From an uncultured Bacilli bacterium (lineage in GTDB: Bacteria > Bacillota_I > Bacilli_A > RF39 > UBA660), in assembly GCA_947624075.1 (NCBI GenBank), contig CANQIM010000001.1, positions 1-30,808 of the forward strand: a DNA stretch of 30,808 nt, given 5' to 3'. The notes under the pieces were generated by a model. The model was given only the letters and a program-made list of their open reading frames with translations, was not told where the DNA came from and did no database searches. Position 1 is the stretch's first letter. Every line of letters starts with the position of its first letter. Below, piece by piece: positions 7,020 through 23,517 of the stretch. Made by a program: the position numbers and the translations under genes.

Positions 7020-7031
7020 AAAGCACTCCAA

Positions 7032-7319
7032 TTATTTAATTTTTTGGAATAAATCAAATAATTCTTCTACAGCTTCTTCGTTATTTTCCTTAATTTCAGT
7101 AGCTAAGCAATTGGTTAAATGGTCTTTTAAAATTCTTTTACCTAAACTTTTTAAAGAATTATCAACTGCTGATATTTGAACTAAGATTTCATCGCAATAT
7201 CTATCTTCGTTTACCATGCCTTTAATTCCTCTTACTTGCCCTTCAATTGTGTTTAAGCGAGTTTTTAAATAATCTTTTTCCTCACTTGATCTTTCTGTTA
7301 TTTTTCTGTTTTCTTTCAT
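7032..7319 (-). CDS. csoR: CsoR family copper-sensing repressor
   Basis: RLNTIEGQVRGI...YC.....Q..A...HL..C (Cys-His-Cys ligand pattern); immediately upstream of copA. Confidence 0.9.
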   Translation of the reverse strand: MKENRKITERSSEEKDYLKTRLNTIEGQVRGIKGMVNEDRYCDEILVQISAVDNSLKSLGKRILKDHLTNCLATEIKENNEEAVEELFDLFQKIK

Positions 7320-7336
7320 TTTTCATCACCAAAAAA

Positions 7337-7366
7337 ATTATACCACCCTGGAGGGGTGGTAGTCAA
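7337..7366 (-). promoter_or_regulatory. sigmaA promoter of csoR with overlapping CsoR-type operator
   Basis: TTGACT (7361-7366), 18-bp spacer, extended -10 TGgTATAAT (TATAAT at 7337-7342). The spacer is filled by the G/C-tract palindrome TACCACCC-tggag-GGGTGGTA (7341-7361), which stands out in this AT-rich DNA. Confidence 0.85.
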
Positions 7367-7405
7367 TATTTGATTAAACTAATTTGTATTGGACTAAGCA
7401 GCAAC

Positions 7406-9934
7406 TTAAATTATTTCATCATCTTCTCTGACTGAAAAGATTGGCTGATCATTTTCTTGACTTTCATCTATGTTTTTAGATAAATCATTATTATCAGTTT
7501 GGAAGTCTTCATTTTCTGATCCTACTTCAGGTTGAATAGTAAATATCGGCCTAGTTGTATCAAAGTCCAACTCATTTTCATTTACTAACTGTGAATATGG
7601 TTTTTGTTCTAATTCAGTATTAGATTCAGAATCTCTTTTAATGTCATCATTTTCTATTTCATTTTGAATATCTTGTTCAACTTCTACCTTAGGAGTTTCT
7701 TTTTCTTTAGTTGAAAATATATCTTTTAGTTCATCTAGAGATTTAAAATCAAACTCTTTATCTTCTACAGGTTCTGTTTTACTTTGAACAGGTTCTACTT
7801 CTTCATTAGATTCTACATTGATAGAATTATCTTTTGAACTTTCAATACTTGGTTCTGTGACTTTAGTATTAGGTTCAACTTCTATTTCTTTTGAAAATTG
7901 CGATGCAAATGGTGTTTCTACATTAGTCATTGGTGCTTCTGAAGGTTCAAGGTCTGACTCCACTGGCTTATCTTTTATATCTTTATCTTTAGGAGTTGAC
8001 TCATTTTTGATAGTATATATTGGTTGAATATTTGATGTATCTAATTTATTATCATAAGCAGCTAAATCTTGTGTGTTTTCAACTTCATTTATTACCTTTT
8101 CACTTTCAATTGCTTTTGCTTCTTCACTTGTTACTTCAGGTATATTATTTACTGAATTAGCATTTTCAACATTTATATTAGGTGTTGATTCAACTGTTTC
8201 TAGAGAAGCTTCTTGATTTTCTAGTTTAACATTTTCTTTAGATTTTTCAGCTAAAGAAACTTCATCAGTTGTAACTATATTCTCATTGAGACTCTTTAAT
8301 CTTTGATCACGCTTTCTTTCGAGAATTTTTCTTTTCTTTGATTCTTCTTTAGCGCCTTTTAATACGTTTATAAGAACGATAATGGCAATTATAGAAATAA
8401 TAATAACAAGAACAATGATAATTTTAAATTTTTCTTTAGATGGATTGTTTATAAGTTCTTGACATTTTTCATAGTCATATTTAATTTCATATTTTCCTTT
8501 TAGAGAATTATTTTCAAGATATTTAGCAATAGCAGAATCTTTTTCAACATGGAAAATTGTACCATTTAATTCATCATCAGTGGAAAAAATATTTTTACCA
8601 ATCTTTTTAATTGTAGATGGTAGATAAACATCTTTAAGTTTAGTATCTGTAAAGGCTTGACTTTCTATTTGCTCTAATCCTTCGGCAAAAACAATTGTTT
8701 TAACTGTTGAAAAAGCAAAAGCATTGTACTCAATTTTTTTGACACTAGATGGAACAATTATTCTTTTTGCCTTAGAGTTGTAATAATCTGAAAATGCTTC
8801 TGATGCAATTGTCGTAATATTATCAGGAATTCTTACATCAGATGATTTTTTACTACAAGCATATAAAATATTATTTCTGATTGCGAAGCCTTCGGAATTA
8901 AGGAAAGATTTAATTTCTTTGGACGAATAATTAATATAGTCTTCACAATCTTTTATAATATTAGCACTGTTACTGTAATCATAGTCAATATTTATTTCAT
9001 CTTGAGCATAGTTAGTTCTTAAATAATTTTCAGCATAAGAATTTTTAATTACATGAAAAGTTGGTTTTTCGCTTAGATTGCTACCAAAAGCCTTAGTACC
9101 TATTTTTATTAGTGAGCTTGGAAGATAAATATCAGCATAACTAGCATCCATAAACACACCATTACCGATTTCTTTTACTCCCTCAGAGAAAACCACTTCA
9201 TTAGTATTAAGATATTCAAATGCTTCATCATCTATTTTTTGAACACTGCTAGGAATTACCAAACTACTAAAATAATAAACATTGTCAGAATCGAATTTAG
9301 CTACTTCAGTTACTGTAGATGGGAAAATTAATTTTCTGTTAGTACCAATATATTTAGTTAAAATACCGTTATTTACAACAAAACCATTGTCATCAGCAAC
9401 TGACTTATCAAAATTCTCATTTAATTCATATAATTTATAATTCTTTTGGGCTTCTATTAAATTGGAATAACAAACAACATTTTGACTAGGAACACTTATT
9501 GTTCCATTAGCTAAGGTAAAAGGATAAGTCTCATCTTTTGTAGTAAATATTCCTTCATTACCATTTAAGACATATGTATAATTTTTTGTTACATTTTGTG
9601 AATCTTTGTAATTATCATTGTAAAGTAAACTAGTCCAACCAATATCAACCTTATTTTTAGCTTTAAAATTTAAAGTTATACGATAATTTTCTAAATTATA
9701 GTAATCGACCGCATCTTCAAAGTCCGCATTAGTTTCAAAATCCTCACGAACAATTTTTAAACCATCTTTTATAGTTGGCAACTTAAAATAATTATTGATG
9801 GCATTACCCTTTACGATATTACAATACCACTCTTTATCTAGGTTTTCTGGAATATCTTCTTTTGCATAAACTCTCAAATTAAAACTTATTAATAAAAGTA
9901 ACAACAATAAAATTATTTTCTTCTTTTTATTCAT
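7406..9934 (-). CDS. BspA-type leucine-rich-repeat (LRR_5) single-pass membrane/surface protein with a long acidic C-terminal tail
   Basis: Signal peptide (…RVYA/KE), repeats such as IPSSVQKIDDEAF / LPSSLIKIGTKAF / IPDNITTIASEAF, TM helix IIIVLVIIISIIAIIVLINVL, then about 310 aa of D/E/N/S/P-rich sequence. ATG 9934 fits the GAGGA SD better than 9940. Confidence 0.8.
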   Translation of the reverse strand: MNKKKKIILLLLLLLISFNLRVYAKEDIPENLDKEWYCNIVKGNAINNYFKLPTIKDGLKIVREDFETNADFEDAVDYYNLENYRITLNFKAKNKVDIGWTSLLYNDNYKDSQNVTKNYTYVLNGNEGIFTTKDETYPFTLANGTISVPSQNVVCYSNLIEAQKNYKLYELNENFDKSVADDNGFVVNNGILTKYIGTNRKLIFPSTVTEVAKFDSDNVYYFSSLVIPSSVQKIDDEAFEYLNTNEVVFSEGVKEIGNGVFMDASYADIYLPSSLIKIGTKAFGSNLSEKPTFHVIKNSYAENYLRTNYAQDEINIDYDYSNSANIIKDCEDYINYSSKEIKSFLNSEGFAIRNNILYACSKKSSDVRIPDNITTIASEAFSDYYNSKAKRIIVPSSVKKIEYNAFAFSTVKTIVFAEGLEQIESQAFTDTKLKDVYLPSTIKKIGKNIFSTDDELNGTIFHVEKDSAIAKYLENNSLKGKYEIKYDYEKCQELINNPSKEKFKIIIVLVIIISIIAIIVLINVLKGAKEESKKRKILERKRDQRLKSLNENIVTTDEVSLAEKSKENVKLENQEASLETVESTPNINVENANSVNNIPEVTSEEAKAIESEKVINEVENTQDLAAYDNKLDTSNIQPIYTIKNESTPKDKDIKDKPVESDLEPSEAPMTNVETPFASQFSKEIEVEPNTKVTEPSIESSKDNSINVESNEEVEPVQSKTEPVEDKEFDFKSLDELKDIFSTKEKETPKVEVEQDIQNEIENDDIKRDSESNTELEQKPYSQLVNENELDFDTTRPIFTIQPEVGSENEDFQTDNNDLSKNIDESQENDQPIFSVREDDEII
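8471..9388 (-). repeat. Two tandem ~140-aa LRR modules (protein-level duplication)
   Basis: Module 1 GFVVNNGIL...FHVIKNSYAENYL...IDYDY (about 9388-8975); module 2 GFAIRNNIL...FHVEKDSAIAKYL...IKYDY (about 8893-8471). Confidence 0.75.
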
Positions 9935-9994
9935 AATCATTCCTCTTTTTATTCATTAACGCATATCAAATATTATTACACATTATAGTATAAC

Positions 9995-10026
9995 AAAAAA
10001 AAGTAAATATTTCTAGACATTTACTT
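9995..10026 (-). terminator. Intrinsic terminator downstream of the SDR gene
   Basis: Minus strand AAGTAAATGT-CTAGAA-ATATTTACTT followed by a T run. Confidence 0.6.
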
Positions 10027-10070
10027 ATTTTTCTCTTTTTTTATGTAAATTTAGAGTAAGTTTTGGCCTT

Positions 10071-10814
10071 TTAACTTCTTGCAGCACCATCAACTTGAAG
10101 AATTTCGCCTGTTATATAGCTTGCTAAATCGCTTGCTAAAAAAAGGAAAGCGTTTGCTATATCACGAGGTGTGCCTATTCTACCTAAAGGAATGGTTTTT
10201 ATTAAAGGTTCAATAGTTTCTTTAGGTAGACTTGCAACCATATCAGTTTCTATAATTCCAGGAGCAACAGCATTAACACGTATATTAGATGGTGCAAGTT
10301 CACGAGCCAAAGATTTAGTTAGACCATTAACAGCAAATTTACTAGCTGGGTAGCCCACTCCAGCTGGCTGACCATAGATAGAAACCATAGAACTAGTATT
10401 TAAAATAACACCTGCATGCTTTTCTTTCATAGAAGGAACAACTGCCTTTGTCATATTAAAGATAGCATTAACATTTAAGTTCATAATTTTTTCAAAATCT
10501 AAAGAAGTAGTATCTTCAATCTTCTTATTAGCGGAAATACCAGCATTATTGATAAGAACATCGATGTGTCCATATATAGTTAAAATATTGTCAATAGTAT
10601 TTTTTACCTCTTCAAAATTGTTCAAATTAGGGTAAAAACCAACTACACTATTCTCCTTTTCATTTAGTACTTCCAAAGCTTTTTTTACTGTCTCTTCTTT
10701 AGAACCAAAGATAATAACTTGAGCATTATTTTCTAAAAATGTTTTAGCAATTTCTAGGCCAATACCCCTAGTTCCTCCCGTTATAAGTACTACTTTATCT
10801 GTAAAATCCAACAT
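10071..10814 (-). CDS. Classical SDR oxidoreductase, BaiA / 3-alpha-hydroxysteroid dehydrogenase-like
   Basis: TGGTRGIG, NNAG, NTSS, GVGYPASK catalytic motif, FLASDLAS and VDGAARS C-terminus. These resemble recalled bile-acid 3-alpha-HSDH sequences more than FabG. Confidence 0.7.
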   Translation of the reverse strand: MLDFTDKVVLITGGTRGIGLEIAKTFLENNAQVIIFGSKEETVKKALEVLNEKENSVVGFYPNLNNFEEVKNTIDNILTIYGHIDVLINNAGISANKKIEDTTSLDFEKIMNLNVNAIFNMTKAVVPSMKEKHAGVILNTSSMVSIYGQPAGVGYPASKFAVNGLTKSLARELAPSNIRVNAVAPGIIETDMVASLPKETIEPLIKTIPLGRIGTPRDIANAFLFLASDLASYITGEILQVDGAARS

Positions 10815-10816
10815 AT

Positions 10817-11329
10817 TTATTTCCTTTCCTCAATTAATAAATCTTCTTTATGATATTTTTTTAACAACTCTTTTATTTCCTTTTTATTTGCGATGTCAAA
10901 AAAGAAAAAGCAAGGGGTTTTTGTCAAAAAAGTAATGCTATTTTTTCTAATCACCACAGCCTCAACTAAATCCCAAGAAAAGTGCATTTCTATTTTTTTA
11001 TATGAATTATTTACTAGACCATTTTTATTGATAGTTGTCGTTCCTCTTGGTTTGTCTGTAGAAAGACATCTTTCAATCATGTAAAAAATGTTTAAAAAAA
11101 GAAAAACAAGGTCAGCAAATAGAACTAAAGAAAAAAGAAATATTCTTTTAAAGACTAATAAGTATAAGCTAACTAAAAGTATATATAAAAAGATAAGAAC
11201 AACATTTTGCAAATAAGTTGTAACTTTTGGATTTTTTTTCTTTAATACTAGACTTTTAGCAGTTGCTACTCCTTGAGCTTCATTAAAGCACTTAAAGAAG
11301 TTTGTAAAAGCATTATCTTCTATTTTCAT
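10817..11329 (-). CDS. Two-TM membrane protein with a C-terminal YcxB-like (PH-type) domain
   Basis: Two hydrophobic helices followed by TTINKNGL...FSWDLVEAVVIRKNSITF, a YcxB-like pattern; GAGGT SD. Confidence 0.5.
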   Translation of the reverse strand: MKIEDNAFTNFFKCFNEAQGVATAKSLVLKKKNPKVTTYLQNVVLIFLYILLVSLYLLVFKRIFLFSLVLFADLVFLFLNIFYMIERCLSTDKPRGTTTINKNGLVNNSYKKIEMHFSWDLVEAVVIRKNSITFLTKTPCFFFFDIANKKEIKELLKKYHKEDLLIEERK

Positions 11330-11353
11330 ATTTCACCTCTTAAATTTTCTTTG

Positions 11354-11383
11354 AAAAAAAATCTAATTTTTACATTAGATTTT
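11354..11383 (-). terminator. AT-rich terminator-like hairpin after ftsZ
   Basis: Minus strand AAAATCTAAT-GTAAAA-ATTAGATTTT followed by TTTT. Confidence 0.5.
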
Positions 11384-12509
11384 AAAAATTTCTATCTCTT
11401 AAGAATGGAGGCAACTCAAAGTCCCCACTAGTAGAGGAATCATCCTCGTCTTCATCATCTTGTAATACTTCAGGTGCTTGTTTGAAGTCTGGTGTTACTC
11501 TTCGATTAGAATTATTGGCTGGTTGTGATGAAACAAAAGCTGGTTCAGCATTCTTTTTAGCTTTATCAAAACCTGTAGCAATAACAGTAACAATAACTTC
11601 ATCAGATAAATTCTCATTGATAACTGATCCAAAGATAGTATTAATATCAGTATTAGCAGCAGCTCTAACAACTTCAGCAGCTTGTTCAGCCTCGAATAAT
11701 GTTAAATTTACTCCTCCTGTAATATTAATAATAGCATCAGTTGCTCCTTCAATAGATGCATCAAGTAATGGACTAGATACAGCTTGACGAGCAGCTTCGA
11801 TAGCACGATCTTCGCCCATACCTATACCAATACCGATAATAGCACGACCAGATTTTTCCATTACTGCACGTACATCAGCAAAGTCCAAGTTAACAAGTCC
11901 AACAACAGCAATTAAATCAGAGATTGATTGAACACCACGACGTAAAACATTATCAACTTCTTTAAATGCTTCAAGCATTGGCGTTGTTTTATCTATAATT
12001 TCTCTTAATCTATCATTTGGAATGACAATAAGAGTATCAACATGTTTTTTTAACTCTTCAATTCCTGCGATAGCATTGTCCATACGCTTTTTACCTTCGA
12101 AGGAAAATGGTTTTGTAACGATTGCAACAGTAAGAGCACCTAATCCTTGAGCAATTTCAGCAACGATTGGAGCGGCACCAGTACCTGTTCCACCACCCAT
12201 TCCAGAAGTTATGAATACCATATCAGCTCCTGTTAGAGCTTCTTCAATTTCCTTTTTAGATTCTAAAGCAGCTTCCTTACCAATTTCTGGTTTAGCACCA
12301 GCTCCTAATCCATCAGTTAAGTTAGCACCTATTTGTATTTTAATATCTGCTTTAGACGTATTCAATACTTGTAAATCTGTGTTAGCTGCTATAAATTCAA
12401 CACCTTTTACTCCAGATTCTACCATTCTATTGATGGCATTCCCGCCACCACCACCTAGGCCGATAACTTTAATTTTTGCTAATTGATCCATTTCTAGTCC
12501 GCCTATCAT
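11382..12509 (-). CDS. ftsZ: Cell division protein FtsZ
   Basis: [16 protein letters not shown] tubulin signature, NLDFAD T7 loop, C-terminal LPPFLR; strong AGGAGG SD. Confidence 0.99.
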
Positions 12510-12521
12510 ACCTTATCCTCC

Positions 12522-13766
12522 TTAATTATCAAAAAAATGTTGAGCTAGTTTACTCATTATATTCTCATTTATTTCTGTAGGGGCTGATTCTTGATGTTCT
12601 ATCAAGTCTTTAATCTCATCCTCTTCAACCATATTGTAAACTTTTCCTCGTAAAGAAAGTTTATCAACAAAGTATTTAATTACACCTAGACTGCTACTGT
12701 ACTCATTATGTCTAACTCCAACAGTTGCAATATTACATACTTTGGCAACAAAACCAAACACATCATCTACAATGCTTTGAAAACTAGCAATCTCGCTTAA
12801 GCCACCTGTTATTATTATATAACGTATTTCTCTATTTGTTAAGTTTTTTATTTCATTTTTAGCAAGTTTTAATATTTCTCTTAATCTAGCTTCAACTACC
12901 TTTGAAACTTCAACTTGAGTTAATTCTTTCTTTTCATTTTCGGTTGTAGTAACCTCAACTATATCAGTATTATCAGCATTTTTACTGACAGCGATAGCAA
13001 AATTTTCTTTTAATTTTTTTGATTCTTTTAAATCAATCTTAAATATATAGGAAATATCTTTATCAACATTTTTACTACCTATAGGGATATTAGAATTTTT
13101 TATTTGAATACCCTTATTATAAATAGCAATATTAGTCTTAGTCTCACCTATATCAATAATGGCTCCAACTAATTCATCTAATTTCTTATTCTTAACTGTG
13201 TAATAATTACCTGTAGAAGTATAGGCAATATCAACAGCTTCCAAACCACTTAATTTTAAAACTTCTAAAATTCGATATAACGGTTCTTTTTCAGTGGTAC
13301 TAAAAACAACCTTAGTTTCCATTTTACTGCCATGCATTTTTTTAGGATCTTTAATTGCCTCTTTACCATCAACAGTAAAATTTATTGGAATAGAAGTTAC
13401 TAATTCTTCATCTTTAAATTCTTTTTCTTTTAAAGCATCCATTATCGCATTACTTATATCATTACCAGTAATTTCATTGTAATCAGATATATCACAACTT
13501 CCATGGGCTATATCAATATTACAATTAGTTGGAGGTATAGCAACAATAACTTTCTTTATCTTAAAACCAAGCATTTCTTCGATTGTTTTCATAGCATCTT
13601 TAACACTAGCTGTAGCCATTTTAGTATCAATAATGGCTCCTTCTTTAATACCTTTGGTCTTAGTACTTGTAGCTGCTAATACATTGAATTTGTTATTCTT
13701 TTTCTCACAAACAACTACTTTTATACTATTGCTACCTAAATCTATACCAGTATAAATACTATCCAT
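12522..13766 (-). CDS. ftsA: Cell division protein FtsA
   Basis: GIDLGSNSIK, IIDIG, EARLREI and ITGG actin-fold motifs; upstream of ftsZ. Start reassigned to ATG 13766 behind an AGGAGT SD. Confidence 0.95.
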   Translation of the reverse strand: MDSIYTGIDLGSNSIKVVVCEKKNNKFNVLAATSTKTKGIKEGAIIDTKMATASVKDAMKTIEEMLGFKIKKVIVAIPPTNCNIDIAHGSCDISDYNEITGNDISNAIMDALKEKEFKDEELVTSIPINFTVDGKEAIKDPKKMHGSKMETKVVFSTTEKEPLYRILEVLKLSGLEAVDIAYTSTGNYYTVKNKKLDELVGAIIDIGETKTNIAIYNKGIQIKNSNIPIGSKNVDKDISYIFKIDLKESKKLKENFAIAVSKNADNTDIVEVTTTENEKKELTQVEVSKVVEARLREILKLAKNEIKNLTNREIRYIIITGGLSEIASFQSIVDDVFGFVAKVCNIATVGVRHNEYSSSLGVIKYFVDKLSLRGKVYNMVEEDEIKDLIEHQESAPTEINENIMSKLAQHFFDN

Positions 13767-13792
13767 ATCAGCAACTCCTATCTTCAAAATCA

Positions 13793-13821
13793 ATTATACT
13801 AGGAAATTAAATATTTGTAAA
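13793..13821 (-). promoter_or_regulatory. Putative sigmaA promoter for ftsA-ftsZ
   Basis: TTTACA (13816-13821), 17-bp spacer, TATAAT (13793-13798). Confidence 0.6.
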
Positions 13822-13882
13822 ATAATTTTTATTTATATTGTTATTTGTTAGTATAGTTTTGATTAAATTCTTCTTATATTTA

Positions 13883-15238
13883 CTAATTTAAATAATAGAT
13901 ATCATAAATGCGAATAGTTTTTACATGTTTACCTTTATTGATAACATAATTTAGAGCTTTTTTGTCCATTTGAGAAGATTTATCAAGCTCTCCTTTAGCT
14001 ATTATTACTAAACAATTCTTCTTTTTTCTTAATGTTTCTAAGATTTTTTTACTTCCATTAATTCCCCAGTTACCTTTGTTAATTACATCTAATTTATCTA
14101 TTTTTAAATCATTATTTATTTTAAAGAAGAAGGCATTAGGAGTAAAAATAATTATTTCTTGTGAAGCATTTTCATTAATAAAATTATTTATTTCCTCTAT
14201 AAATTCTAAACTTTGTTCATCAATTAGACGATAATTAAAATCTTTTAATTTATTTGGAAAGATAAATTTACCTCCATTAATATTAGTTTGGAATGTGAAT
14301 AAACCCATCAAAAAGATTATTAATAATACCACTATTTTATAGTTAAAAAATATTCTTTTGTTTTTTAATATTAAAATAATTATAAAAGCTCTAAATGCTT
14401 CAAAAAAGTGACCAAAATCGAAAATAGGTATTAGGATAGAATAAAAAGCTAAAACATATGAATAAGTAAGAACTTTTCTTTTATCTTTTTCTTTTATTAT
14501 AAAAATAATAGTTATAATTATTAATATTAAAGATATTAGAAAATAAAAATCTAATCCATTATTGTTACCTGTAAAATCAAATAAACCTAAAAAGCATAAA
14601 TCTATAAAGTAAAAAAAAGTTTTACTAATGATAAGATATATTAGAAAAATAATGAGTGGTATGCTTAAGCCAAGAAAGCGTTTGGACAGTTTCCCTTTAT
14701 TTTTATGAAAAAAGCAGATGCTTGGTAAAATTAAAAATAAGCCAATGTTTTGTTTGGTTAGAATACATATTCCTATTAGAAAACCAATTAAGTAATCATT
14801 ATCTATTTTTTTGAAGATATTTTTTTCTTTATTTTCTATATATAATATTATTATTAGTAAAATAAACATGAATGTATTGTAGTTAGGATATGAAAAATTG
14901 TGTGGAAAAAAGAAAAAAAGGATAATGAGATAGGCTTTTTCTTTAAACATTCTAAATAGTAAGAAAGAGCAAAAAGTTAATAATAGTGAAAAGACAATGT
15001 CTACTGTTAAAATATTGGATGAAAATATTTTTAAAAAAAGAGACATAAAAAATGGATAAAATGGCGTTATAACCATATTAAAATCTTTATAAGGAAGATA
15101 ACCTTTACCAATAGAATAAGCAAAACCATAACTCCATATCTCATCAAAATTTACTGGACTTATGAATAGATTATAAAGTAAAAAGAGCAAAAAAAGAGCA
15201 AAATACTTTAAAATTTTTTTTAATTTAACTGTTTTAAT
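13883..15238 (-). CDS. GT-C-like polytopic membrane protein, array paralog 5 (probable ATT start)
   Basis: DEIWSYGFAYSIGKGYLPYKDFNMVITP, YN, IG...G...LTKQ, PIFDFGH and GNWG motifs shared with four paralogs. The frame is open upstream of the TTG at 15190 to an ATT at 15238 preceded by a GGGGGTG SD. Confidence 0.65.
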   Translation of the reverse strand: MKTVKLKKILKYFALFLLFLLYNLFISPVNFDEIWSYGFAYSIGKGYLPYKDFNMVITPFYPFFMSLFLKIFSSNILTVDIVFSLLLTFCSFLLFRMFKEKAYLIILFFFFPHNFSYPNYNTFMFILLIIILYIENKEKNIFKKIDNDYLIGFLIGICILTKQNIGLFLILPSICFFHKNKGKLSKRFLGLSIPLIIFLIYLIISKTFFYFIDLCFLGLFDFTGNNNGLDFYFLISLILIIITIIFIIKEKDKRKVLTYSYVLAFYSILIPIFDFGHFFEAFRAFIIILILKNKRIFFNYKIVVLLIIFLMGLFTFQTNINGGKFIFPNKLKDFNYRLIDEQSLEFIEEINNFINENASQEIIIFTPNAFFFKINNDLKIDKLDVINKGNWGINGSKKILETLRKKKNCLVIIAKGELDKSSQMDKKALNYVINKGKHVKTIRIYDIYYLN

Positions 15239-15284
15239 ATTTACACCCCCTACTTAATAAAGTAAAGATTTTAATCATAACTTT

Positions 15285-16625
15285 CTACACTCCATTATAT
15301 AAGTAGATTTCATAGTCACCACATTTTTCAACAAATTTGCTATGTTTTTTTAAGTAATCAGATGCTTCAAAAAAATATTGTTCTTCTGGCTTATGTTCGG
15401 CGTCTTTTATAAATAAATATTTTTTCTTGGACTTATTTAAGTAATTTAGAACATTATCTAGTTCCTTGGAACCATAGTTTCCTCGTAGGAATACTTGTAA
15501 ATAGTTTGTTTTTTTATGATAATACATATCTAGTAAAGCACCCCAATGATTATGCGTTATAACAATTGCTTTGTCACCATATTTTTCATATTTAGGCATT
15601 ACTTTTTTTATTTTTTTGTACTCTTCTTCCTTTATAAAATAATATTTAAAATCATTATTAGTTTTAGAAAGTCTTTTTGAACTTGGAACATCATAATAGA
15701 AAAAGAAAAGGTAGAAAAAAGAAAAAATAGCAAAAACAATGATAGCATAATTATAAATGTCTTTTATTTTAATATTATCTAAAAAAGCACTTAAGTAACA
15801 AAAAAGGAAAAAATACATATGATGAGCATCTATTATAGGTATGGCAAACATCATTGAAGAAAGAGCATAATAATTGCAAATATTTTTTTTATCTTTAAAG
15901 ATTTTAACTAGAAGAACAGCGACTAAAATAAACAAGATTATTGTCCAACTAGTTTTATAAATAGAATTATTTTTTTTGAAATTAAATAGTCCTAAGATAC
16001 ATAAATCAAAAAATTCTTTATAGTTATTGTTTATAAATAAGTAAATAATAAATAATACTATTGGAACTAAAGCACCAGCTATTCTTTTTAATATTTTTTT
16101 AGGTTCTTTTATATAGAAAAAACTTGGTAAGAAAAAGAAAGCACCTATTGTGAATTTTGTTATTATGGCTAGACCAATTACTGTACCTATGAGATAATCA
16201 TTTGGTTTCTTTTTTTCAAGATAAATAATGGCAAAAAATAAAAGTAAAAGAAAAGAATTATATGTTGGCTGTATTAAAAGAAAATATGAAAAAATAATTA
16301 AAAGTAAAAAGAGATAAGCTTTTCTTTCGTAAAGTTTAAATAGAAAATAGAAAAGAAGCGTAAATAAAAGTGTATGATATAAAATAAAAATGTGATAGCC
16401 ACTACCAAATAATTTTAAAAATACGGAGCCTAAAAAATGGTAAAAAACTGGAACTATAACATTAAAATCTATATAAGGTACATAACCTTTGGACATAGAA
16501 TAAGTAAAGGAATAATTCCAAAAACTATCACTAATTTGGTTATTTATAGATGGAAAAAACAATCCAGAAAAGAACAACAGAATGAATATAAAGATTAGAT
16601 CTTTTTTATACTTAAATTTTTTCAT
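15285..16625 (-). CDS. GT-C-like polytopic membrane protein, array paralog 4
   Basis: DSFWNYSFTYSMSKGYVPYIDFN, IGTVIGLAIITKFT, PIIDAHH, GNYG; many TM helices plus a soluble C-terminal domain; overlaps the paralog 3 stop. Confidence 0.65.
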   Translation of the reverse strand: MKKFKYKKDLIFIFILLFFSGLFFPSINNQISDSFWNYSFTYSMSKGYVPYIDFNVIVPVFYHFLGSVFLKLFGSGYHIFILYHTLLFTLLFYFLFKLYERKAYLFLLLIIFSYFLLIQPTYNSFLLLLFFAIIYLEKKKPNDYLIGTVIGLAIITKFTIGAFFFLPSFFYIKEPKKILKRIAGALVPIVLFIIYLFINNNYKEFFDLCILGLFNFKKNNSIYKTSWTIILFILVAVLLVKIFKDKKNICNYYALSSMMFAIPIIDAHHMYFFLFCYLSAFLDNIKIKDIYNYAIIVFAIFSFFYLFFFYYDVPSSKRLSKTNNDFKYYFIKEEEYKKIKKVMPKYEKYGDKAIVITHNHWGALLDMYYHKKTNYLQVFLRGNYGSKELDNVLNYLNKSKKKYLFIKDAEHKPEEQYFFEASDYLKKHSKFVEKCGDYEIYLYNGV

Positions 16626-17961
16626 ATATTGTATATCCTCCTATTTTTTGTAATTTTTTTCCTATTTTTATTCCAAATTTGGCAATTTCTCTATTAAATT
16701 GGATAGATACATTACTTCGTTTAGAAAATGTTTCATTAGTGTCAACGATAATAATTGTACCTTTTTCTAGTTTAGAAAGTTCTTTTTTCATTTTTGATGT
16801 TCCGTTGTAGCCATGATTTCCTTTATTTATCAAATCGAAATACGTTATATCTAAATTACAAGTTATTTTATAAAAATAGGCATCACTTGCTAAAAAAATA
16901 ATTTTTTTGTCTTTATTATTGTTTAAGTACTCTATCATTTTGTTTCTTATGTAATTTTCACCGTTCTTATCATATAAAAGACGATAGTTGAAATTATGAT
17001 AATGATTAGGATAATGAATTTTACCTTGAAAAGTTGTAAAGAAAAAGAAGATAAAGACGAAGGAACAACTAAATAAAAGGGTATTAGAAATTAAACTTTT
17101 CTTATTTACTTTTATCTTATCTATTAAAAGAATTAGAAAAATAAAGAAAAAATATTCAATATGTTGGTAATCAAATAAAGGAACCATGATAGAAGAAAAG
17201 GCTAAAACATATAAATACTTAATATCTTTTTTATTTTTTAGATATAATATTAATGCTATAATTATCAAAATAATTCCTGTTATTAAAGCAAAATCAAGTT
17301 TTCCTTTATTACTAGAAGTAAAATCAAAAGCACCTAGAAAACATAGATTTAAAAATGCTTTAAAACTTTTAGTGATAATTAAATATAGTAGAAAAATAGT
17401 ATTTGGAATTAAGACACCTATTAATCTTTTAAATAACTTTTTTAAATCTTTATGATAATAAATTAAACTAGGTATAAATAGAAATACTCCTACTGTTTGC
17501 TTAGTTAAAATGCTTAGACCAATTATAAAACCGATTAAGACATCATTTCTTTTTGTTTTTTCATAATAAATAAGTAAAAGCGTTAAAAAGACTAGAAATA
17601 AATTGTAAGATGGAAAAACTAAAGCTGGTATTGGGAAAACAAGAAAAATTAAAAAAAGCCATGCTTTATAATTAAACATTTTAAAAAGAAAATAAAATAT
17701 TAAAGTTACTAATAAAGCATTCTCTAAATAGAAAAAAATTATATTAGTATTAAGCCTTAAAATTAGCGACATTATCATAGGATAAAGTGGTGTTAAAATC
17801 ATATTAAAATCTAAATAAGGCACTTCTCCCCTACTAATTGCATAGGAAAAACCATAATTCCATAAAACATCTCCATCAAAATAAGTTAAGAAAAAACTCA
17901 TGGAAAAAAAAGCAAAGAAAAATATAAATATATATTTAAAATTATTTTTTAAAAATTTCAT
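16612..17961 (-). CDS. GT-C-like polytopic membrane protein, array paralog 3
   Basis: DVLWNYGFSYAISRGEVPYLDFNMILTP, IGFIIGLSILTKQT, PLFDYQH, GNHG; AAGGAG SD. Confidence 0.65.
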   Translation of the reverse strand: MKFLKNNFKYIFIFFFAFFSMSFFLTYFDGDVLWNYGFSYAISRGEVPYLDFNMILTPLYPMIMSLILRLNTNIIFFYLENALLVTLIFYFLFKMFNYKAWLFLIFLVFPIPALVFPSYNLFLVFLTLLLIYYEKTKRNDVLIGFIIGLSILTKQTVGVFLFIPSLIYYHKDLKKLFKRLIGVLIPNTIFLLYLIITKSFKAFLNLCFLGAFDFTSSNKGKLDFALITGIILIIIALILYLKNKKDIKYLYVLAFSSIMVPLFDYQHIEYFFFIFLILLIDKIKVNKKSLISNTLLFSCSFVFIFFFFTTFQGKIHYPNHYHNFNYRLLYDKNGENYIRNKMIEYLNNNKDKKIIFLASDAYFYKITCNLDITYFDLINKGNHGYNGTSKMKKELSKLEKGTIIIVDTNETFSKRSNVSIQFNREIAKFGIKIGKKLQKIGGYTIYEKI

Positions 17962-18039
17962 ATTTTGGCTCCTTACTATTCAAATATATAATGAATGACA
18001 TTTCATGAATTTTGATATTTTTAATTACTTTTTTACTTT

Positions 18040-18068
18040 ATTATAAACGCAATAATTTTTTATAGCAA
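18040..18068 (-). promoter_or_regulatory. Putative internal sigmaA promoter for paralogs 3-5
   Basis: TTGCTA (18063-18068), 17-bp spacer, TATAAT (18040-18045), in the 148-bp gap between paralogs 2 and 3. Confidence 0.55.
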
Positions 18069-18109
18069 ATCAAATTATGCCTTTTAATTCCTTTTAAAAG
18101 TTGAATAAA

Positions 18110-19441
18110 TTATTTTTTATAATATATATCGTAATTTTCTACTTTATCTTTTTTATGAGAATTATTTATAGCATATTTGATAATTTCAGTATCCAATTGA
18201 TTAGCTTGTGGATATGTTTTATATTTATATCTGTCAATGAAAAAGTAAACATCATGCATATTTTCAATTTTTTTCTTCATATCATCTGTTCCTTTATAGC
18301 CATAGTTTCCTTTTAATAAAACATCAAAGTAAGTTATTTTTTTATCTGTCACTAAATCATAAAACATTGACGATTCATCTAACATGTAAACATTTTTATA
18401 TTTTTTATATTTTTTTAATACAGATATTATACTTTTTTTATTTTCAGCTTTTATTCCATATAACGTAAAATGTTTTTGATTTAAAAAAGTAAAATTTTCA
18501 AACTTATGAGGTATTAAAATTAGATTGAAAAAACAAATTATACTAAAAAGAAGAAGAGAAATATTTCTTAGATATTTTTCTTTTAAAGGAACTTTGTCTA
18601 AGAATAATAAAGTAAAAACACCTATAAACAATCCTACATGGTAAAAATCAAACAAAGGTAGGACAAAAGAGAAACTACCTAAAGCATAATAGTTTAGAAT
18701 ATTTTTGTTATCTTTAATAGTAATATAAAGCAAAAAAATTAGAAGAATTAAAGGCAAAATAAATAAAAAAGAAAATGAAGTAGCATGATTTTTAGTACCA
18801 AAATCAATCATACCTAAGAAGCATAAATTAATAAAAGAACTTATACTATTTGTTACAAATAAATATAGTATAAATATTAAAACAGGTAGAAAAGCAAATA
18901 TAGATCTTTTAAAAATTCTTTGCCTATCTCTCAAGCCAATTAAACTTAATAAAAAAACTGGTATACCTATTGTTTGTTTTGATAGTATCAAAAGTCCTAG
19001 TACAAAACCAATTAAAGAATCCTTCTTCTTTTCTTTTTCTAATAAAAATAAAAGAACTATTAAAAAGTAAGCAAAAAAATTATAAGTAGCATTATACTGA
19101 GTAAATAAAGGAAATGCTAATATTGGTAAAAGAAGATAGGCACGATTATTAAACGTACGGAAAAACATGTAAAAAAGAATTGTGACTAATAGAGATTGAC
19201 CTATCATGAACATAAACATATCATCTTTAATAAAAAGAAAAAGACTCATTAAGAAAGAATAAAGCGGAGTACTTATAGTATTAAAATCTAAATAAGGAAT
19301 TTCGCCTTTCCTAATTGCGTGAGCAAAACCATAGTTCCAAATAACATCAAAACTACAATTTTCATAGAAAAAACAAACATACATAATTAAAAAAGATATA
19401 AAGATTAATAAATATTTATAGTTTTTCTTAATAAAGCTCAT
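18110..19441 (-). CDS. GT-C-like polytopic membrane protein, array paralog 2
   Basis: DVIWNYGFAHAIRKGEIPYLDFNTISTP, IGFVLGLLILSKQT, PLFDFYH, GNYG. Confidence 0.65.
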   Translation of the reverse strand: MSFIKKNYKYLLIFISFLIMYVCFFYENCSFDVIWNYGFAHAIRKGEIPYLDFNTISTPLYSFLMSLFLFIKDDMFMFMIGQSLLVTILFYMFFRTFNNRAYLLLPILAFPLFTQYNATYNFFAYFLIVLLFLLEKEKKKDSLIGFVLGLLILSKQTIGIPVFLLSLIGLRDRQRIFKRSIFAFLPVLIFILYLFVTNSISSFINLCFLGMIDFGTKNHATSFSFLFILPLILLIFLLYITIKDNKNILNYYALGSFSFVLPLFDFYHVGLFIGVFTLLFLDKVPLKEKYLRNISLLLFSIICFFNLILIPHKFENFTFLNQKHFTLYGIKAENKKSIISVLKKYKKYKNVYMLDESSMFYDLVTDKKITYFDVLLKGNYGYKGTDDMKKKIENMHDVYFFIDRYKYKTYPQANQLDTEIIKYAINNSHKKDKVENYDIYYKK

Positions 19442-19445
19442 ACTC

Positions 19446-20813
19446 TTACTTCCTATAATAGATTTGATAAGGTCCTATTTCTTTTTCTAATTTAGAATTC
19501 TTTTTAGCAAACAAAGAAAACTCTTTAACGTACTGCTGATACATATTATTATCTTTTTCTAAAGTCTTATCTAAAATAAAATAAACATCTTCTTTTTTGC
19601 TAATTTTCTTTAGCATCTTATCAATACCATTATACCCATAGTTGCCATAATTAGACAAGTCAAAATAAGTTATTTCTTTATTGTTCATAATCTTAAAAAA
19701 ATAGTTTTCAGAACCCCTTAATAAATAGATGACTTCTTGATCTTTTTCTTTTAAATATTCACTTAGATTATCTATATTTTTAGAATAATTTTTAGAAATG
19801 AGTGTTAAAGGAAAATTATGATAGTTTTTAAATACTGGCTTTTGTAAATACTTAAATTCAATAAAAGTCCAAATTAGAGCCATACCTATTATAAAAGTAA
19901 GGCAATACTTAGAAATATTTTTTATTTTTAGAGAAAAACCATCTAGAAAGATGAAAACTACCGCCAATAAAAATAAAGCAACATGATAATAATCAACTAT
20001 AGGAAGAGCAACAAAAGAAAAAGCTAAAGTATAATAGTAAAGAATATTTTTCTTATCTTTAAAAATCTTATAAATTATGTATATAATACCTAATAAGAAT
20101 AAAGACAAATAAAAATAATTTAGAACATTATTCCTTTTCGCAAAACTAAAAAGTCCTAAAAAACACAAATCAAAAAAGGAAGTAAAACTTTTAGTAATTA
20201 ATAAATAGATTAAAAAAATAAATAACGGCAAGAAAAGACCCGCTAATCTTTTAAAAAATTTTTTGCAATCTTTAAAAAGAAAATAAATGTTAGGTAAAAA
20301 AAGCATAAGACCTACAGTTTGCTTAGTTAAAATAAGTAAGCCTAAAATAATACCTATTATGAAATCATTCTTCTTCCTTTTTTCCAAATATATTAAGATG
20401 AGAAACAAAAAGAAAAGGAAAAAGTTATAACCTGGAAAAATGGTTGATGCAAAAGGAATAGGAAAAGGAATTAGCATAATAGTTAAAAATAAATAGGCTT
20501 TCTCTTGAAGTAGTTTTTGTAAAAGATAAAACATAGAAGTAAGGAATAATGCCTGTTCCAAATAATAAGTGATTATTGATTTATTAATAAATAGAAAAAA
20601 AGAATAAATAAAAGGAGCAAACGGAGTTATTACCATGTTAAAATTCTTATAAGGAACTTCTAATTTACTTATAGCATAACTAAAACCATAATTAACATAT
20701 AAATCTCCCCTATTTAAATTATAGAATAATAATAAACACAAAAAAAAGAAAACAAAAAGTAGTAAATACCCATAATTTTTCTTTATTATATTGAAAAACT
20801 TTTGCATTTTCAT
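19446..20813 (-). CDS. GT-C-like polytopic membrane protein, array paralog 1
   Basis: DLYVNYGFSYAISKLEVPYKNFNMVITP, IGIILGLLILTKQT, PIVDYYH, GNYG; TAATG overlap with the divIB stop (ATG 20807 is an alternative start with better SD spacing). Confidence 0.65.
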   Translation of the reverse strand: MKMQKFFNIIKKNYGYLLLFVFFFLCLLLFYNLNRGDLYVNYGFSYAISKLEVPYKNFNMVITPFAPFIYSFFLFINKSIITYYLEQALFLTSMFYLLQKLLQEKAYLFLTIMLIPFPIPFASTIFPGYNFFLFFLFLILIYLEKRKKNDFIIGIILGLLILTKQTVGLMLFLPNIYFLFKDCKKFFKRLAGLFLPLFIFLIYLLITKSFTSFFDLCFLGLFSFAKRNNVLNYFYLSLFLLGIIYIIYKIFKDKKNILYYYTLAFSFVALPIVDYYHVALFLLAVVFIFLDGFSLKIKNISKYCLTFIIGMALIWTFIEFKYLQKPVFKNYHNFPLTLISKNYSKNIDNLSEYLKEKDQEVIYLLRGSENYFFKIMNNKEITYFDLSNYGNYGYNGIDKMLKKISKKEDVYFILDKTLEKDNNMYQQYVKEFSLFAKKNSKLEKEIGPYQIYYRK

Positions 20814-21502
20814 TACTCCTTTATTTGAAAGTGATTACCATTATCTAGATAAAGAATTCCCTTATGATTTTCAAGTTGACTTAAAACTTTATTATAATAA
20901 TTTATCATTTTAAATTTAGTTAGTGTTAAATAAACCATGTTTCCATCGTCCATGTAAAGTAAAAATCGATCTTTGTCAATATTATTAGGTTGATATTCAA
21001 TATCAGAAATTTTTCCTAAAATATCTTTTTCAATATTATTCATACCCTTTATAAACTTATCATATTTATTATCAGGAACATAATTTATAAGTCTTGGAAC
21101 ACGAAAAGAAGAAACCATAACGTCACTTTCTACTTTTTCTTTATTACTTAAAACCATCTTTTGAGAAGTATTATCATAAAAAATAGCTTTATTTTCTGTT
21201 ACTTCAATCGTTAAAACATGAAAAAAACTTCTATGTACTTTAACATTGTTAATATATGGTGACTTTTCTAGAGACTTTTTTATTTTACCTGTAGTAAAGC
21301 TATAAAAACTAGGATAATTTTTTAAATTAGCTTTTTCTATTATATAATCATCATTTAAATAGCTAGTTTTTTTTATAATAATATTTTTTAAAGGAATAGA
21401 TAAATATAATTTAACGCCAAAAAATAGTCCTGTTAATATTAAAAGAACTAATAAAAGATTAAATACTTTTAATTTTCTTCTTTTGACTATTTTTTTTGCC
21501 AT
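20813..21502 (-). CDS. divIB: Cell division protein DivIB/FtsQ
   Basis: Basic N-terminus, single TM, POTRA-like domain (LEKSPYINNVKVHRSF), YMDDGN.V and GILYLD motifs; follows murB. Confidence 0.88.
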   Translation of the reverse strand: MAKKIVKRRKLKVFNLLLVLLILTGLFFGVKLYLSIPLKNIIIKKTSYLNDDYIIEKANLKNYPSFYSFTTGKIKKSLEKSPYINNVKVHRSFFHVLTIEVTENKAIFYDNTSQKMVLSNKEKVESDVMVSSFRVPRLINYVPDNKYDKFIKGMNNIEKDILGKISDIEYQPNNIDKDRFLLYMDDGNMVYLTLTKFKMINYYNKVLSQLENHKGILYLDNGNHFQIKE

Positions 21503-21505
21503 CTT

Positions 21506-22414
21506 CTACTCCCAATTTACAAATTCTTGTTCTATTTTCATATCAACTTTATATTTTTCTAAAACTTCATCGTGCACTAAATCTATTAGTTTTTTTATGT
21601 CCGTGCTAGTTGCTTTTTTATAATTTATAATGAAATTAGCATGTTTATTACTAACCATTGCCCCACCTATTTTTTTACCTTTTAGGCCAATATTTTCGAT
21701 TAGCTGGCCAGCAAACATTCCTTCAGGATTACGAAAAACACTACCAGCTGATGGGTATTCTAAAGGTTGGGATTCCATGCGGCGTTTTCTTCTTTCCTTA
21801 ATTACATCTTCGATTGCTTGTTTATTTCCTTTTTCTAATTTAATTAAAACTTCTAGGCAAATGTAGTTTGGATGTTTTTGTAAAAAAGAAGTTCGATAGT
21901 GAAAATTCATTTCTTTATTTTCTAAAGTTATAATTTTTAGATCAGGTGTTAGTACTTTTACTTCTTTAGCGATGTAACCCATGTCACTTTTGTAAGCACC
22001 AGCATTCATAAAAATACTACCACCTACTGTACCTGGGATACCAGAAGCAAATTCCAAGCCCGTTAACCCTTTTCTAGCAGCTAACATACTGAGTTTCATT
22101 AAGGAAAAGCCAGCTCCTACACGAATCTTTTGACCATTTAAAAATTTTATATCATTAAATTCCGTTAATTTAATTAAAATGCCATCATAGAACTTATCAC
22201 TAAATAAAAGATTAGAACCATTACCTAGAATTTTATAAGTAACATTTTCCATTTTTAATAATTTAATAAGTTTTGTTAAAGAAGAAATGTTTTTAGGATA
22301 GACAATAGCTCTTGCTTTGCCACCTACTTTATAAGTTGTATATTTACTTAAAGAGACATTTTCTTCAACTTTGCCTATATTTAATGTGGTAATTTTTGTA
22401 AGTAAATTATCCAT
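21506..22414 (-). CDS. murB: UDP-N-acetylenolpyruvoylglucosamine reductase
   Basis: TTYKVGG, GNGSNLL, GLEFASGIPGTVGG, MNAGAY, PSAGSVFRNP, HANF. Likely start ATG 22414 behind an AGGTG SD. Confidence 0.97.
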   Translation of the reverse strand: MDNLLTKITTLNIGKVEENVSLSKYTTYKVGGKARAIVYPKNISSLTKLIKLLKMENVTYKILGNGSNLLFSDKFYDGILIKLTEFNDIKFLNGQKIRVGAGFSLMKLSMLAARKGLTGLEFASGIPGTVGGSIFMNAGAYKSDMGYIAKEVKVLTPDLKIITLENKEMNFHYRTSFLQKHPNYICLEVLIKLEKGNKQAIEDVIKERRKRRMESQPLEYPSAGSVFRNPEGMFAGQLIENIGLKGKKIGGAMVSNKHANFIINYKKATSTDIKKLIDLVHDEVLEKYKVDMKIEQEFVNWE

Positions 22415-22419
22415 TAACA

Positions 22420-23496
22420 TCACCTAATTATCTTTCGTATTTCATTATATATTCTAGTTGCTGAATCCTTTATTCCTAGTTTCTGACTACTTTCTTTCAT
22501 TTTACTATAAATTTCTTCATTACAAAAGAGGTTATCTATTTCTTTTAATAATTTTTCTTTGGAAAATTCTTCCTCAGTTACAATAGTACAAGCACCAACT
22601 GATTCTAAATCTTTGGCATTTTTGTATTGATGATTATTAGTAACATAAGGGGATGGAACTAAAATAGCAGGTAAACCTATAGCAGTGATTTCCGCAATAG
22701 TAGAAGCTCCTGCACGTGATACTAATAAATCAGTATCTTTTAAAAGATTAATCAAATTATCAAGAAAAGGATAAATTTTAACATTTTTAGGAACAGCTAA
22801 ATTCTTATAGGATTCATAATAATTATTTCCAGTAATGATAAGTACTTGATAATCTTTATCTTGGAAAGAAGGAATTAATTCTTTTAACTTATCAGTCATT
22901 GTCAGAGAACCAAGGGAACCCATGACAAAAACGACTAATTTTTTATCTTCTATAAAACCTAACTCTTTTTTTAATAAAGGTTTTTCTGAAATAATTTCTT
23001 CACTACGAGGATTACCTGTGTAGACTGTTTTCTTTTTAGAAAAGTACTTGACGCTATTAGGTAGTGAGACACAGATTCGATTAGCAAAAGAAGAAATAAA
23101 TTTATTAGAAACACCAGGAATGGAGTTTTGTTCATGAATTAAAATGGGATACTTAAGTTTTTTGGCGGCATAAAGAACAGGAGCTGTAATATATCCACCG
23201 GCACCAATTACGACATCAGGATGGAAGTCGCTAATAATTTTTTTAGCTTCTTTGATAGCATTATTATACTTTTTTAAAACACTTATATTAGAAAAAATAT
23301 TTTTTCTATTTAACCCAGCCATTTCGATACCAACAAATTTTATATTCATTTTAGGAATTATATCTTTTTCCATACGATCAGTTGTACCAATATACAAAAT
23401 CTCACTATTTGGTTCTTGATCTTTTATTTTATTGATAATGGCAATAGCTGGATAAATATGTCCTCCTGTACCGCCCGCAACGACTATAGCTCTCAT
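22420..23496 (-). CDS. murG: Undecaprenyldiphospho-muramoylpentapeptide beta-N-acetylglucosaminyltransferase
   Basis: GGTGGHIYPA, GGY, HEQN, GNP, GSLGS, SRAGASTIAE, HQYKNA motifs. Confidence 0.97.
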   Translation of the reverse strand: MRAIVVAGGTGGHIYPAIAIINKIKDQEPNSEILYIGTTDRMEKDIIPKMNIKFVGIEMAGLNRKNIFSNISVLKKYNNAIKEAKKIISDFHPDVVIGAGGYITAPVLYAAKKLKYPILIHEQNSIPGVSNKFISSFANRICVSLPNSVKYFSKKKTVYTGNPRSEEIISEKPLLKKELGFIEDKKLVVFVMGSLGSLTMTDKLKELIPSFQDKDYQVLIITGNNYYESYKNLAVPKNVKIYPFLDNLINLLKDTDLLVSRAGASTIAEITAIGLPAILVPSPYVTNNHQYKNAKDLESVGACTIVTEEEFSKEKLLKEIDNLFCNEEIYSKMKESSQKLGIKDSATRIYNEIRKIIR

Positions 23497-23517
23497 CAAA
23501 TCACCTTCGGTTAATTA

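Follow-up and report, generated by a model that had tools for sequence, protein, structure and literature searches.

Why would a gut bacterium with a small genome keep five diverged copies of one membrane-protein gene in the middle of its cell-division cluster? The question is raised by a 30,808-nucleotide stretch of DNA (the window) from an uncultured Bacilli bacterium of a rabbit-gut metagenome (contig CANQIM010000001.1, GCA_947624075.1), whose minus strand reads murG-murB-divIB-[five paralogs]-ftsA-ftsZ. A first-pass annotation had taken the five genes for consecutive, intact GT-C-like membrane paralogs of an undescribed family, and open reading frames (ORFs), domain matches and alignment agree on five intact copies between divIB and ftsA. 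Modelling confirms an ArnT-like GT-C fold for them, and we consider it likely that they form an unnamed branch of the ArnT/PMT_2-like GT-C glycosyltransferases, acting as terminal transferases of the cell envelope by the scheme laid out below. In the ORF list all five are co-oriented, on the minus strand of the 13883-20813 region:

19446-20813, minus strand: paralog 1, 455 residues; subfamily B, the type usually adjoining divIB
18110-19441, minus strand: paralog 2, 443 residues; subfamily F
16612-17961, minus strand: paralog 3, 449 residues; subfamily D; the copy used for structure modelling
15285-16625, minus strand: paralog 4, 446 residues; subfamily L
13883-15238 from an ATT (451 residues), or 13883-15190 from a TTG (435 residues), minus strand: paralog 5; subfamily A, the type usually near ftsA

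Public gene calls start paralog 1 two codons later (453 residues). No further copies are present in the 1.07 Mb assembled from this genome (66% complete).

Structural models place the paralogs among GT-C proteins

What kind of protein does the array encode? An AlphaFold2 model of paralog 3, based on a 138-sequence alignment (predicted local distance difference test (pLDDT) 94.5, predicted TM-score (pTM) 0.93), shows a membrane domain that ends near residue 310, followed by an alpha/beta domain spanning residues 311-449. When this model was aligned exhaustively against 48,161 PDB chains, every one of the top 20 had a GT-C fold (Z 7.1-16.3, with 19 reaching at least Z 10), and unrelated helical proteins began at Z 7. 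The best match was ArnT (5F15; Z 16.3, 392 residues aligned over 1-449). ALG12, Pmt1/2, PIG-U, ALG3, AglB, GPI-MT-I, AftA/B, ALG9 and ALG6 were among the other top matches, and STT3, PimE, DPY19, PglB, EmbA (Emb) and AftD were also found within the top 20. ArnT was likewise recovered by Foldseek against the PDB (TM-score 0.62) and ranked first in a search of Swiss-Prot models. The AlphaFold DB clusters returned 'RgtA/B/C/D-like' proteins with TM-scores of up to 0.70, and the ESM Atlas returned ArnT-family/PMT_2 clusters at 0.75-0.78 and a 501-residue PMT_2 family of Bacillota at 0.85; GT39 clusters were also among the fold matches, at 0.6-0.78. No Wzy, ligase or EpsG structure was among the top fold matches. 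GT-C folds are characterised by a polytopic membrane domain with a conserved N-terminal module and by a long first outer loop bearing two short helices, and by its matches the model falls among them. The model and three independent fold searches, with GT-C proteins at the top, thus bear out the GT-C reading of the first-pass annotation.

The C-terminal domain was also modelled alone (pLDDT 89.8). A PDB sequence search with its profile gave no match, and its language-model neighbours, which serve as a lead only, are the C-terminal domains of Ccs4, ArnT and AftA.

The family belongs to the GT-C superfamily by fold and catalytic signature, is borderline to PMT_2, lies outside the GT87 and YfhO profiles, and is named in neither Pfam nor NCBIfam. 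Weak Pfam matches to PMT_2 and GT87 cover the N-terminal module. A PMT_2 search of the genome gave 26.0 bits for paralog 5, at the edge of the cut-off of 26.1 (27.4 with neighbouring hits in frame), 24.1 for paralog 2 and 17.7 for paralog 4, and some homologues carry a precomputed PF09594 match. An NCBIfam scan of the paralogs returned nothing meaningful, and a PDB sequence search a single marginal, unrelated match. The Pfam YfhO profile gave no match at E up to 1, and a YfhO-named cluster appeared only at rank 27 in the structure search. The Wzy_C and O-antigen_lig profiles did not match either, EpsG alone being hit, by paralog 4 at E 0.16.

The family is large, with 1,585 representatives at 50% identity and E <=0.001 and 561 at E <1e-30, nearly all of them 430-460 residues long. 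Among 120 listed homologues only two carried any source text ('hypothetical protein' and an MGnify tag), none of the ten NCBI-sourced members looked up had a name, and literature searches found no paper on the family or on the divIB-ftsA arrangement. That the family was undescribed, as had been proposed, is consistent with all of these searches. The 561 clusters, which no profile database names, would provide a direct basis for a Pfam or CAZy entry.

Conserved residues and two unequal modules

The five proteins align end to end with 54 invariant columns, at pairwise identities of 31-43%; paralog 4 is the most diverged copy, with 31-34% identity to the other four. Conservation is unevenly distributed, with 42-44% identity over residues 1-220 versus 28-29% over residues 221-449. 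The more conserved part corresponds to the N-terminal catalytic module, and the more diverged part to the final membrane helices plus the soluble domain at the C-terminus. GT-C enzymes are usually split in this manner, into a conserved module for donor binding and catalysis and a variable acceptor module.

Nearly all motifs that had been read from the window are present in all five copies as described, namely PY-x-[DN]-FN, YN, D-x2-IG-x3-G-x4-[TS]K, KR, LC-x-LG, P-x2-D-x2-H, GN-x-G and a terminal Y-x-IY; the motif following transmembrane helix 1 (TM1) needs correction, as it reads D-x4-Y-x-F rather than D-x3-Y-x-F. Conservation was then counted over 183 family members from genomes, in the numbering of paralog 3. 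Lys154, Gly144, Gly158, Tyr119 and Phe214 are kept in 100% of them, His267 in 99%, Arg179 in 96% and the second acidic residue, Asp51, in 92%. Asp31, located six residues past TM1 (helix 8-24) at the start of a loop helix (30-43), is kept in 96%, with Glu in three members. The alignment with ArnT and the Lys-rich N-terminus suggest that the Asp31 loop faces outward. In the C-terminal domain, the G381-N382-x-G384 loop is kept in 99% of members. The window copies retain these conserved residues, the sole exception being an Asn at the D51 position of paralog 1, and because of this all five look catalytically competent.

Organisation of the array

The neighbouring genes of the division and cell-wall cluster are:

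22420-23499, minus strand: murG, upstream of murB
21506-22423, minus strand: murB, upstream of divIB
20813-21502, minus strand: divIB/ftsQ, 229 residues, POTRA_1 at E 9e-14; upstream border of the slot
12522-13793, minus strand: ftsA, 423 residues as listed and 414 in public calls, with FtsA and SHS2_FTSA domains; downstream border of the slot
11382-12509, minus strand: ftsZ, by domain match

A few genes downstream of ftsZ, the window also encodes a BspA-type leucine-rich repeat protein of 844 residues (7406-9940; LRR_5 E 3e-27), probably a surface protein.

The junctions of the array are as first annotated: the divIB stop codon overlaps the ATG of paralog 1 (TAATG), paralog 2 follows paralog 1 after 4 nucleotides, and paralogs 3 and 4 overlap by 14 nucleotides. 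Elsewhere, a gap of 148 nucleotides separates paralogs 2 and 3, about 46 nucleotides lie between paralog 4 and the ATT of paralog 5, and 89 nucleotides between paralog 5 and ftsA. Every array start is preceded by a Shine-Dalgarno-like sequence (AAAGGAG before the ATG of paralog 1, AAGGAG before that of paralog 3), which in paralog 5 is found at the ATT and is missing at the TTG. The terminator scan found a single weak hairpin, inside paralog 1, and none in any intergenic gap of the array, so the absence of a terminator before ftsA is upheld. Promoter-like sites were no more frequent in the array region than in shuffled sequence, and the promoter scan is therefore uninformative on operon structure; the best promoter-like match of the region (TTTACA-17-TATAAT, 13821-13793) lies just upstream of ftsA.

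Is the array real? Its five genes occur in identical layout in three separately assembled samples, and four orthologues occupy the same order in a related locus (L006). The array is thus no assembly artefact, a possibility that the first-pass annotation had itself raised. The DNA runs that match the window stem from rabbit-gut and other gut metagenomes, and no RNA runs are among them.

An ATT start of paralog 5 is plausible from the sequence. Between the upstream stop codon and the TTG at 15190 there is no ATG, GTG or TTG (window 13883-15256). The ATT at 15238 has GGGGGTG 7 nucleotides upstream and places the conserved Asp at residue 32; the TTG lacks a ribosome-binding site and would delete most of TM1, although public gene calls give the 435-residue form. 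In six type-A relatives that were checked, the start is ATG (five) or GTG (one), with 31-32 residues before the conserved Asp. Alternatively, the start codon of paralog 5 may have been damaged recently.

The array is poor in G+C (0.21-0.23 versus 0.37 in ftsZ), yet at third codon positions it resembles its neighbours (0.15-0.20 versus 0.12-0.20). The low value arises at codon positions 1 and 2 and is thus attributable to amino-acid composition, which the first-pass annotation had suspected to be part of the cause. A foreign origin of the array was considered and rejected, given that third-position G+C equals that of the neighbouring genes.

Distribution and history of the array

How widespread is this arrangement, and how old is it? 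A scan of one genome per prokaryotic species yielded 69 loci, whose hosts are uncultured gut 'Bacilli', 'Tenericutes' and 'Mollicutes' metagenome-assembled genomes or evidently mislabelled bins. All 50 loci in which both divIB and ftsA are visible read murG-murB-divIB-[copies]-ftsA-ftsZ, an order shared by nearly all of the 69. These 50 contain one (4 loci), two (14), three (18), four (5) or five (9) full-length copies. A copy outside the division cluster was seen in four to five loci (L050, L064, L066, L069) and in one further genome (G176), and the genomic contexts of three distant members were uninformative.

An even sample of the window's GTDB order, which is almost wholly one family, that of the window genome, contained the proteins in 29 of 201 genomes and 18 of 99 genera (E <=1e-20). 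A sample of the class, with 266 genomes belonging to 28 other families, contained them in none. Scoring in these samples covered a part of the first-look candidates, so that the counts are lower bounds; within them, the proteins are found only in the window's own GTDB family. In one of five non-carriers examined (G002, 98% complete), divIB directly abuts ftsA, and this empty slot looks like the ancestral state.

The slot also accommodates other genes. In relatives it contains an LtaS-like sulfatase-domain protein of 610 residues (L010:11929-13758) and PMT_2-type GT-C proteins of 501-511 residues that score above the Pfam threshold (L036:2790-4292, L052:6331-7863). A polytopic protein of about 480 residues without a Pfam match lies between the last copy and ftsA in about ten related loci, for example:

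L007:8931-10370: 480-residue slot protein
L012:14097-15515: 480-residue slot protein
L009:13941-15380: 480-residue slot protein
L009:15377-16777: 480-residue slot protein

In L009 and L021 it is accompanied by an FAD amine-oxidase-like protein of about 525 residues. With other envelope genes in this position in relatives, the slot serves the lineage as a general docking site for such genes.

In a FastTree phylogeny of the 183 members, which cluster into about 14 types, a copy sits with others of its type rather than with those of its own genome. Types also keep a partly fixed order, in which the gene next to divIB is usually of type B and the ftsA end is taken by A or by A followed by C. Relatives show the strings BAC, BEA, BA, AC and DIBAC, and the window B-F-D-L-A. 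The nearest relative, L006, also from rabbit gut, reads G-B-F-D-L. It forms four orthologous pairs with the window (100% support), each pair being nearest neighbours in the tree at distances of 0.31-0.45, and differs by one extra gene at the divIB end and by the missing type A gene at the ftsA end. Since types group across genomes and share an order, the duplications are old and shared between species, and gain and loss are ongoing at the ends of the array. The proposal of a lineage-expanded family thus stands in part: the family is restricted to its lineage and expanded at exactly the divIB-ftsA position, but not by a recent burst. Such turnover at the ends is more in keeping with accessory surface chemistry than with a housekeeping pathway of fixed composition.

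Candidate partners in the genome

An ArnT-like fold, as modelled, points to a partner of the ArnC/GtrB type, and by analogy the family would use a polyprenyl-phosphate sugar donor. The first-pass annotation found no donor synthase in the window and placed the partners elsewhere, and candidates are indeed present on other contigs. A GT2 protein of 329 residues with C-terminal transmembrane helices, encoded on contig C16 (10556-11545), matches GtrB (5EKP) at E 3e-69 and ArnC at E 3e-39; its best NCBIfam match is PgfS (E 9e-89, below cut-off). Contig C60 (L075:1483-2855) carries an Alg14-like gene and, after it, one for a 299-residue fusion protein that joins a PssE/Alg13-like glycosyltransferase domain to a GtrA-type membrane domain. 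A pilin-like gene adjoins these genes.

The C16 gene is part of a glycan cluster (4672-14820; L083), which also encodes an O-antigen-ligase-like/GT4 fusion of 767 residues, a soluble GT2 protein of 305 residues, a GT2-PMT_2 fusion of 806 residues, and two polytopic proteins of 589 and 561 residues without clear family.

A GtrB homologue occurs in 27 of 28 sampled carriers of the family versus 111 of 172 non-carriers, a co-occurrence that is suggestive, the related genomes not being independent. In G176, a GtrB homologue immediately precedes the sole family member, and the two ORFs overlap.

As candidates on the acceptor side, the genome contains an LtaS-like gene and an LCP gene. LtaS was rejected as a discriminating partner, as LtaS-like genes are found in 195 of 201 sampled genomes and hence give no signal. 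A TagF-type teichoic acid polymerase was not found in the 66% complete genome. Two further PMT_2 GT-C genes lie on C35 and on C24, the latter adjoining the LCP gene, and the assembled 1.07 Mb contains at least eight GT-C genes in total.

The genome (about 1.6 Mb) also has an expanded family of proteins of about 250 residues, with at least ten copies, several of them at contig ends. A phage tail-collar/Gp10_C domain forms the C-terminus of the three that were scanned (E 1e-22 to 1e-25), and all ten copies contain Ser/Thr/His-rich 'HTHT...TTTSGSAGSS' stretches, which could supply glycosylation substrates:

C45:7814-8572: copy of the 250-residue protein
C3:149-931: copy of the 250-residue protein
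C33:9101-9850: copy of the 250-residue protein
C39, C66, C90, C85, C28, C27 and C103: further copies

A SpoIIP homologue on C86 (L080:2025-2954; E 3e-55) hints at wall-remodelling genes of the sporulation type.

How might the array act?

We envision a scenario whereby a GT-A enzyme of the GtrB/ArnC type attaches a sugar to undecaprenyl phosphate at the cytoplasmic side, the lipid-linked sugar is flipped across the membrane, and each GT-C paralog then employs the Asp at the start of its first outer loop to move the sugar to an acceptor at the external side of the membrane. Because the N-terminal module is conserved and the C-terminal part diverged, the paralogs probably use the same donor chemistry but diverge in acceptor site, linkage or sugar. 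Among acceptors, an envelope glycopolymer made during wall growth seems most likely, for instance a lipoteichoic-acid-like polymer or an LCP-attached wall polysaccharide. The enzymes would be co-expressed with the division genes, and a location between divIB and ftsA would tie their timing to septal wall synthesis.

Several observations weigh against this proposal. In the Pfam scan, paralogs 1, 3 and 4 reach only 17.1-20.3 bits with GT87 (PF09594; cut-off 25) and paralogs 2 and 5 have no match, and PMT_2 (PF13231) gives paralog 5 only 23.0 bits (cut-off 26.1), with none listed for the other four. An hhalign comparison of the family profile with two slot proteins of relatives, a PMT_2 GT-C protein and a 480-residue protein, was not significant, and kinship with these is structural only. 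No GtrB homologue lies within 10 kb of any of the 69 related loci, the adjacency described above occurring in one genome only, and the GtrB homologue of the window genome adjoins other GT-C genes on C16 and may serve those instead. Finally, promoter-like sites are not enriched, and paralog 3 might be transcribed from a separate promoter in the 148-nucleotide gap ahead of it.

Which other activities are conceivable? One alternative, which we regard as improbable, is protein O-glycosylation, whereby sugars from undecaprenyl phosphate would be attached to Ser/Thr-rich disordered outer regions of membrane-associated proteins. Streptococcal pairs of a GT-C enzyme and GtrB or PgfS glycosylate such regions, including that of FtsQ of S. 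mutans (PMC12041528), and PgfS is also the closest, if sub-threshold, NCBIfam match of the GtrB homologue. The genome does not lack Ser/Thr-rich proteins, with a 528-residue protein on C35, which also carries a PMT_2 GT-C gene, the pilin-like protein on C60 and the ten or more tail-collar proteins. Yet the DivIB beside the array has no Ser/Thr-rich region (at most 23% Ser plus Thr in any 30 residues), none of the loci shows linkage of a candidate substrate gene to the array, the streptococcal enzymes are of the YfhO type, to which the array family has no match, and ArnT, which is the best structural match including the C-terminal domain, acts on a lipid-linked glycan. Another alternative is a modification of peptidoglycan or of its lipid precursor, with sugars being added to lipid II or to nascent septal glycan strands: ArnT-like enzymes use lipid-anchored acceptors, and the array is placed strictly after murG-murB-divIB in dozens of species. 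This we consider slightly less probable still. We know of no GT-C enzyme that acts on lipid II. Copy number ranges from none (G002) to five and types turn over among near relatives, which suits an accessory decoration more than a step of core wall synthesis, and a few members reside away from the division cluster (L050, L064, L066, L069, G176).

The paralogs might also not be glycosyltransferases at all, but rather a non-catalytic scaffold akin to PIG-U, a polymerase or ligase of the Wzy/WaaL type, or a transporter. PIG-U, a non-catalytic protein of GT-C fold, is among the structural matches (Z 12.5-14.2), and paralog 4 has the marginal EpsG match (E 0.16). We judge this very improbable: the best full-length matches are enzymes, with the C-terminal domain aligning too (ArnT, AftA/B, AglB), hardly any of the 183 members departs from the first-loop Asp or the membrane Lys, the family has no Wzy_C/O-antigen-ligase match whereas a clear one exists elsewhere in the genome (E 2e-49), and Foldseek gave transporter folds TM-scores of 0.1-0.15.

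A bolder version of envelope glycosylation, which strikes us as rather unlikely, would be a division-coupled glycan assembly line, in which core types (B by divIB; A and C by ftsA) and variable middle types act in sequence outside the membrane to build or branch a lineage-specific wall polymer or lipoglycan at the septum. If so, the array would constitute a new functional module of the division and cell-wall cluster, and its variable members would generate surface diversity at the strain level.

Why should this matter? The hosts are uncultured gut Bacilli with small genomes (about 1-1.6 Mb) that are common in animal and human guts, and the array costs the window genome 6.9 kb in one of the most conserved bacterial gene neighbourhoods. 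If the preferred reading is true, and a surface polymer is decorated in step with septal synthesis, then these enzymes would define antigens and phage receptors of the lineage, and GT-C glycosylation genes would for the first time be seen as part of the division and cell-wall cluster.

Relation to known systems

The closest structural counterpart of the array proteins is ArnT (CAZy GT83; undecaprenyl-phosphate-L-Ara4N:lipid A transferase; 5F15/5EZM), together with RgtA-D/PMT_2-like proteins (Z 16.3, TM-scores 0.62-0.70 over the full length). Like ArnT, the array proteins have an acidic residue after TM1 and a basic one within the membrane, and the genome encodes a candidate partner of the ArnC/GtrB type. 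They are however about 100 residues shorter (443-455 versus about 550), are only 8-13% identical to it, belong to a Gram-positive-type host without lipid A, and are encoded in tandem in the division cluster rather than in an arn-like operon.

The scheme we propose is that of multi-component systems in Gram-positive bacteria, in which a membrane GT-A enzyme makes an undecaprenyl-phosphate sugar, a GtrA- or Wzx-type protein flips it, and a GT-C enzyme decorates lipoteichoic acid, wall teichoic acid or wall polysaccharide outside (PMC8035078). In Firmicutes the parts are CsbB, GtlA or GacI with GtcA/GtrA and the GT-C protein YfhO, GtlB or GacL (PMC8035078). The window genome has homologues of both GT-A enzyme and flippase. 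Its GT-C family differs from theirs, and the array genes are unlinked to synthase and flippase (except for GtrB in G176). In addition, the array family has up to five or more tandem paralogs, compared to one enzyme in the Firmicutes systems. Streptococcal O-glycosylation likewise combines a GT-C enzyme with a GtrB-like synthase (GtrB with PgtC2, PgfS with PgfM1), and PBP1a, PrsA, PknB, LytR and FtsQ are glycosylated (PMC12041528); PgfS is the synthase closest to ours by NCBIfam, but the streptococcal GT-C enzymes are of the YfhO type, and the DivIB of the array has no Ser/Thr-rich tail.

Among named families of Bacillota, Ccs4 (PF27757), a competence-induced membrane protein of S. pneumoniae, is nearest by structure (TM-score 0.74) and by language-model features, both of which are leads only. 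Ccs4-type proteins are about 490-550 residues long and, unlike the array family, are encoded outside the division cluster. The functions of ccs4 are called unknown, and the gene is linked to pneumococcal invasion into brain tissue in meningitis (PMC6177246).

Several diverged GT-C paralogs per organism are also found in mycobacteria (PimE, AftA-D, EmbA-C) and in eukaryotes (ALG3/9/12), all of them structural matches of the array proteins. Those enzymes each add a different sugar or linkage to one lipid-linked glycan, a sequential action that the array paralogs may hypothetically share, but their genes are not, as in the array, arranged in tandem in the division cluster.

In Bacillus subtilis the slot contains ylxW-ylxX-sbp; the same position hosts accessory genes there, of unrelated content. 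The novelty lies in the family itself and in its constant location between divIB and ftsA, where its old paralogs form a tandem array.

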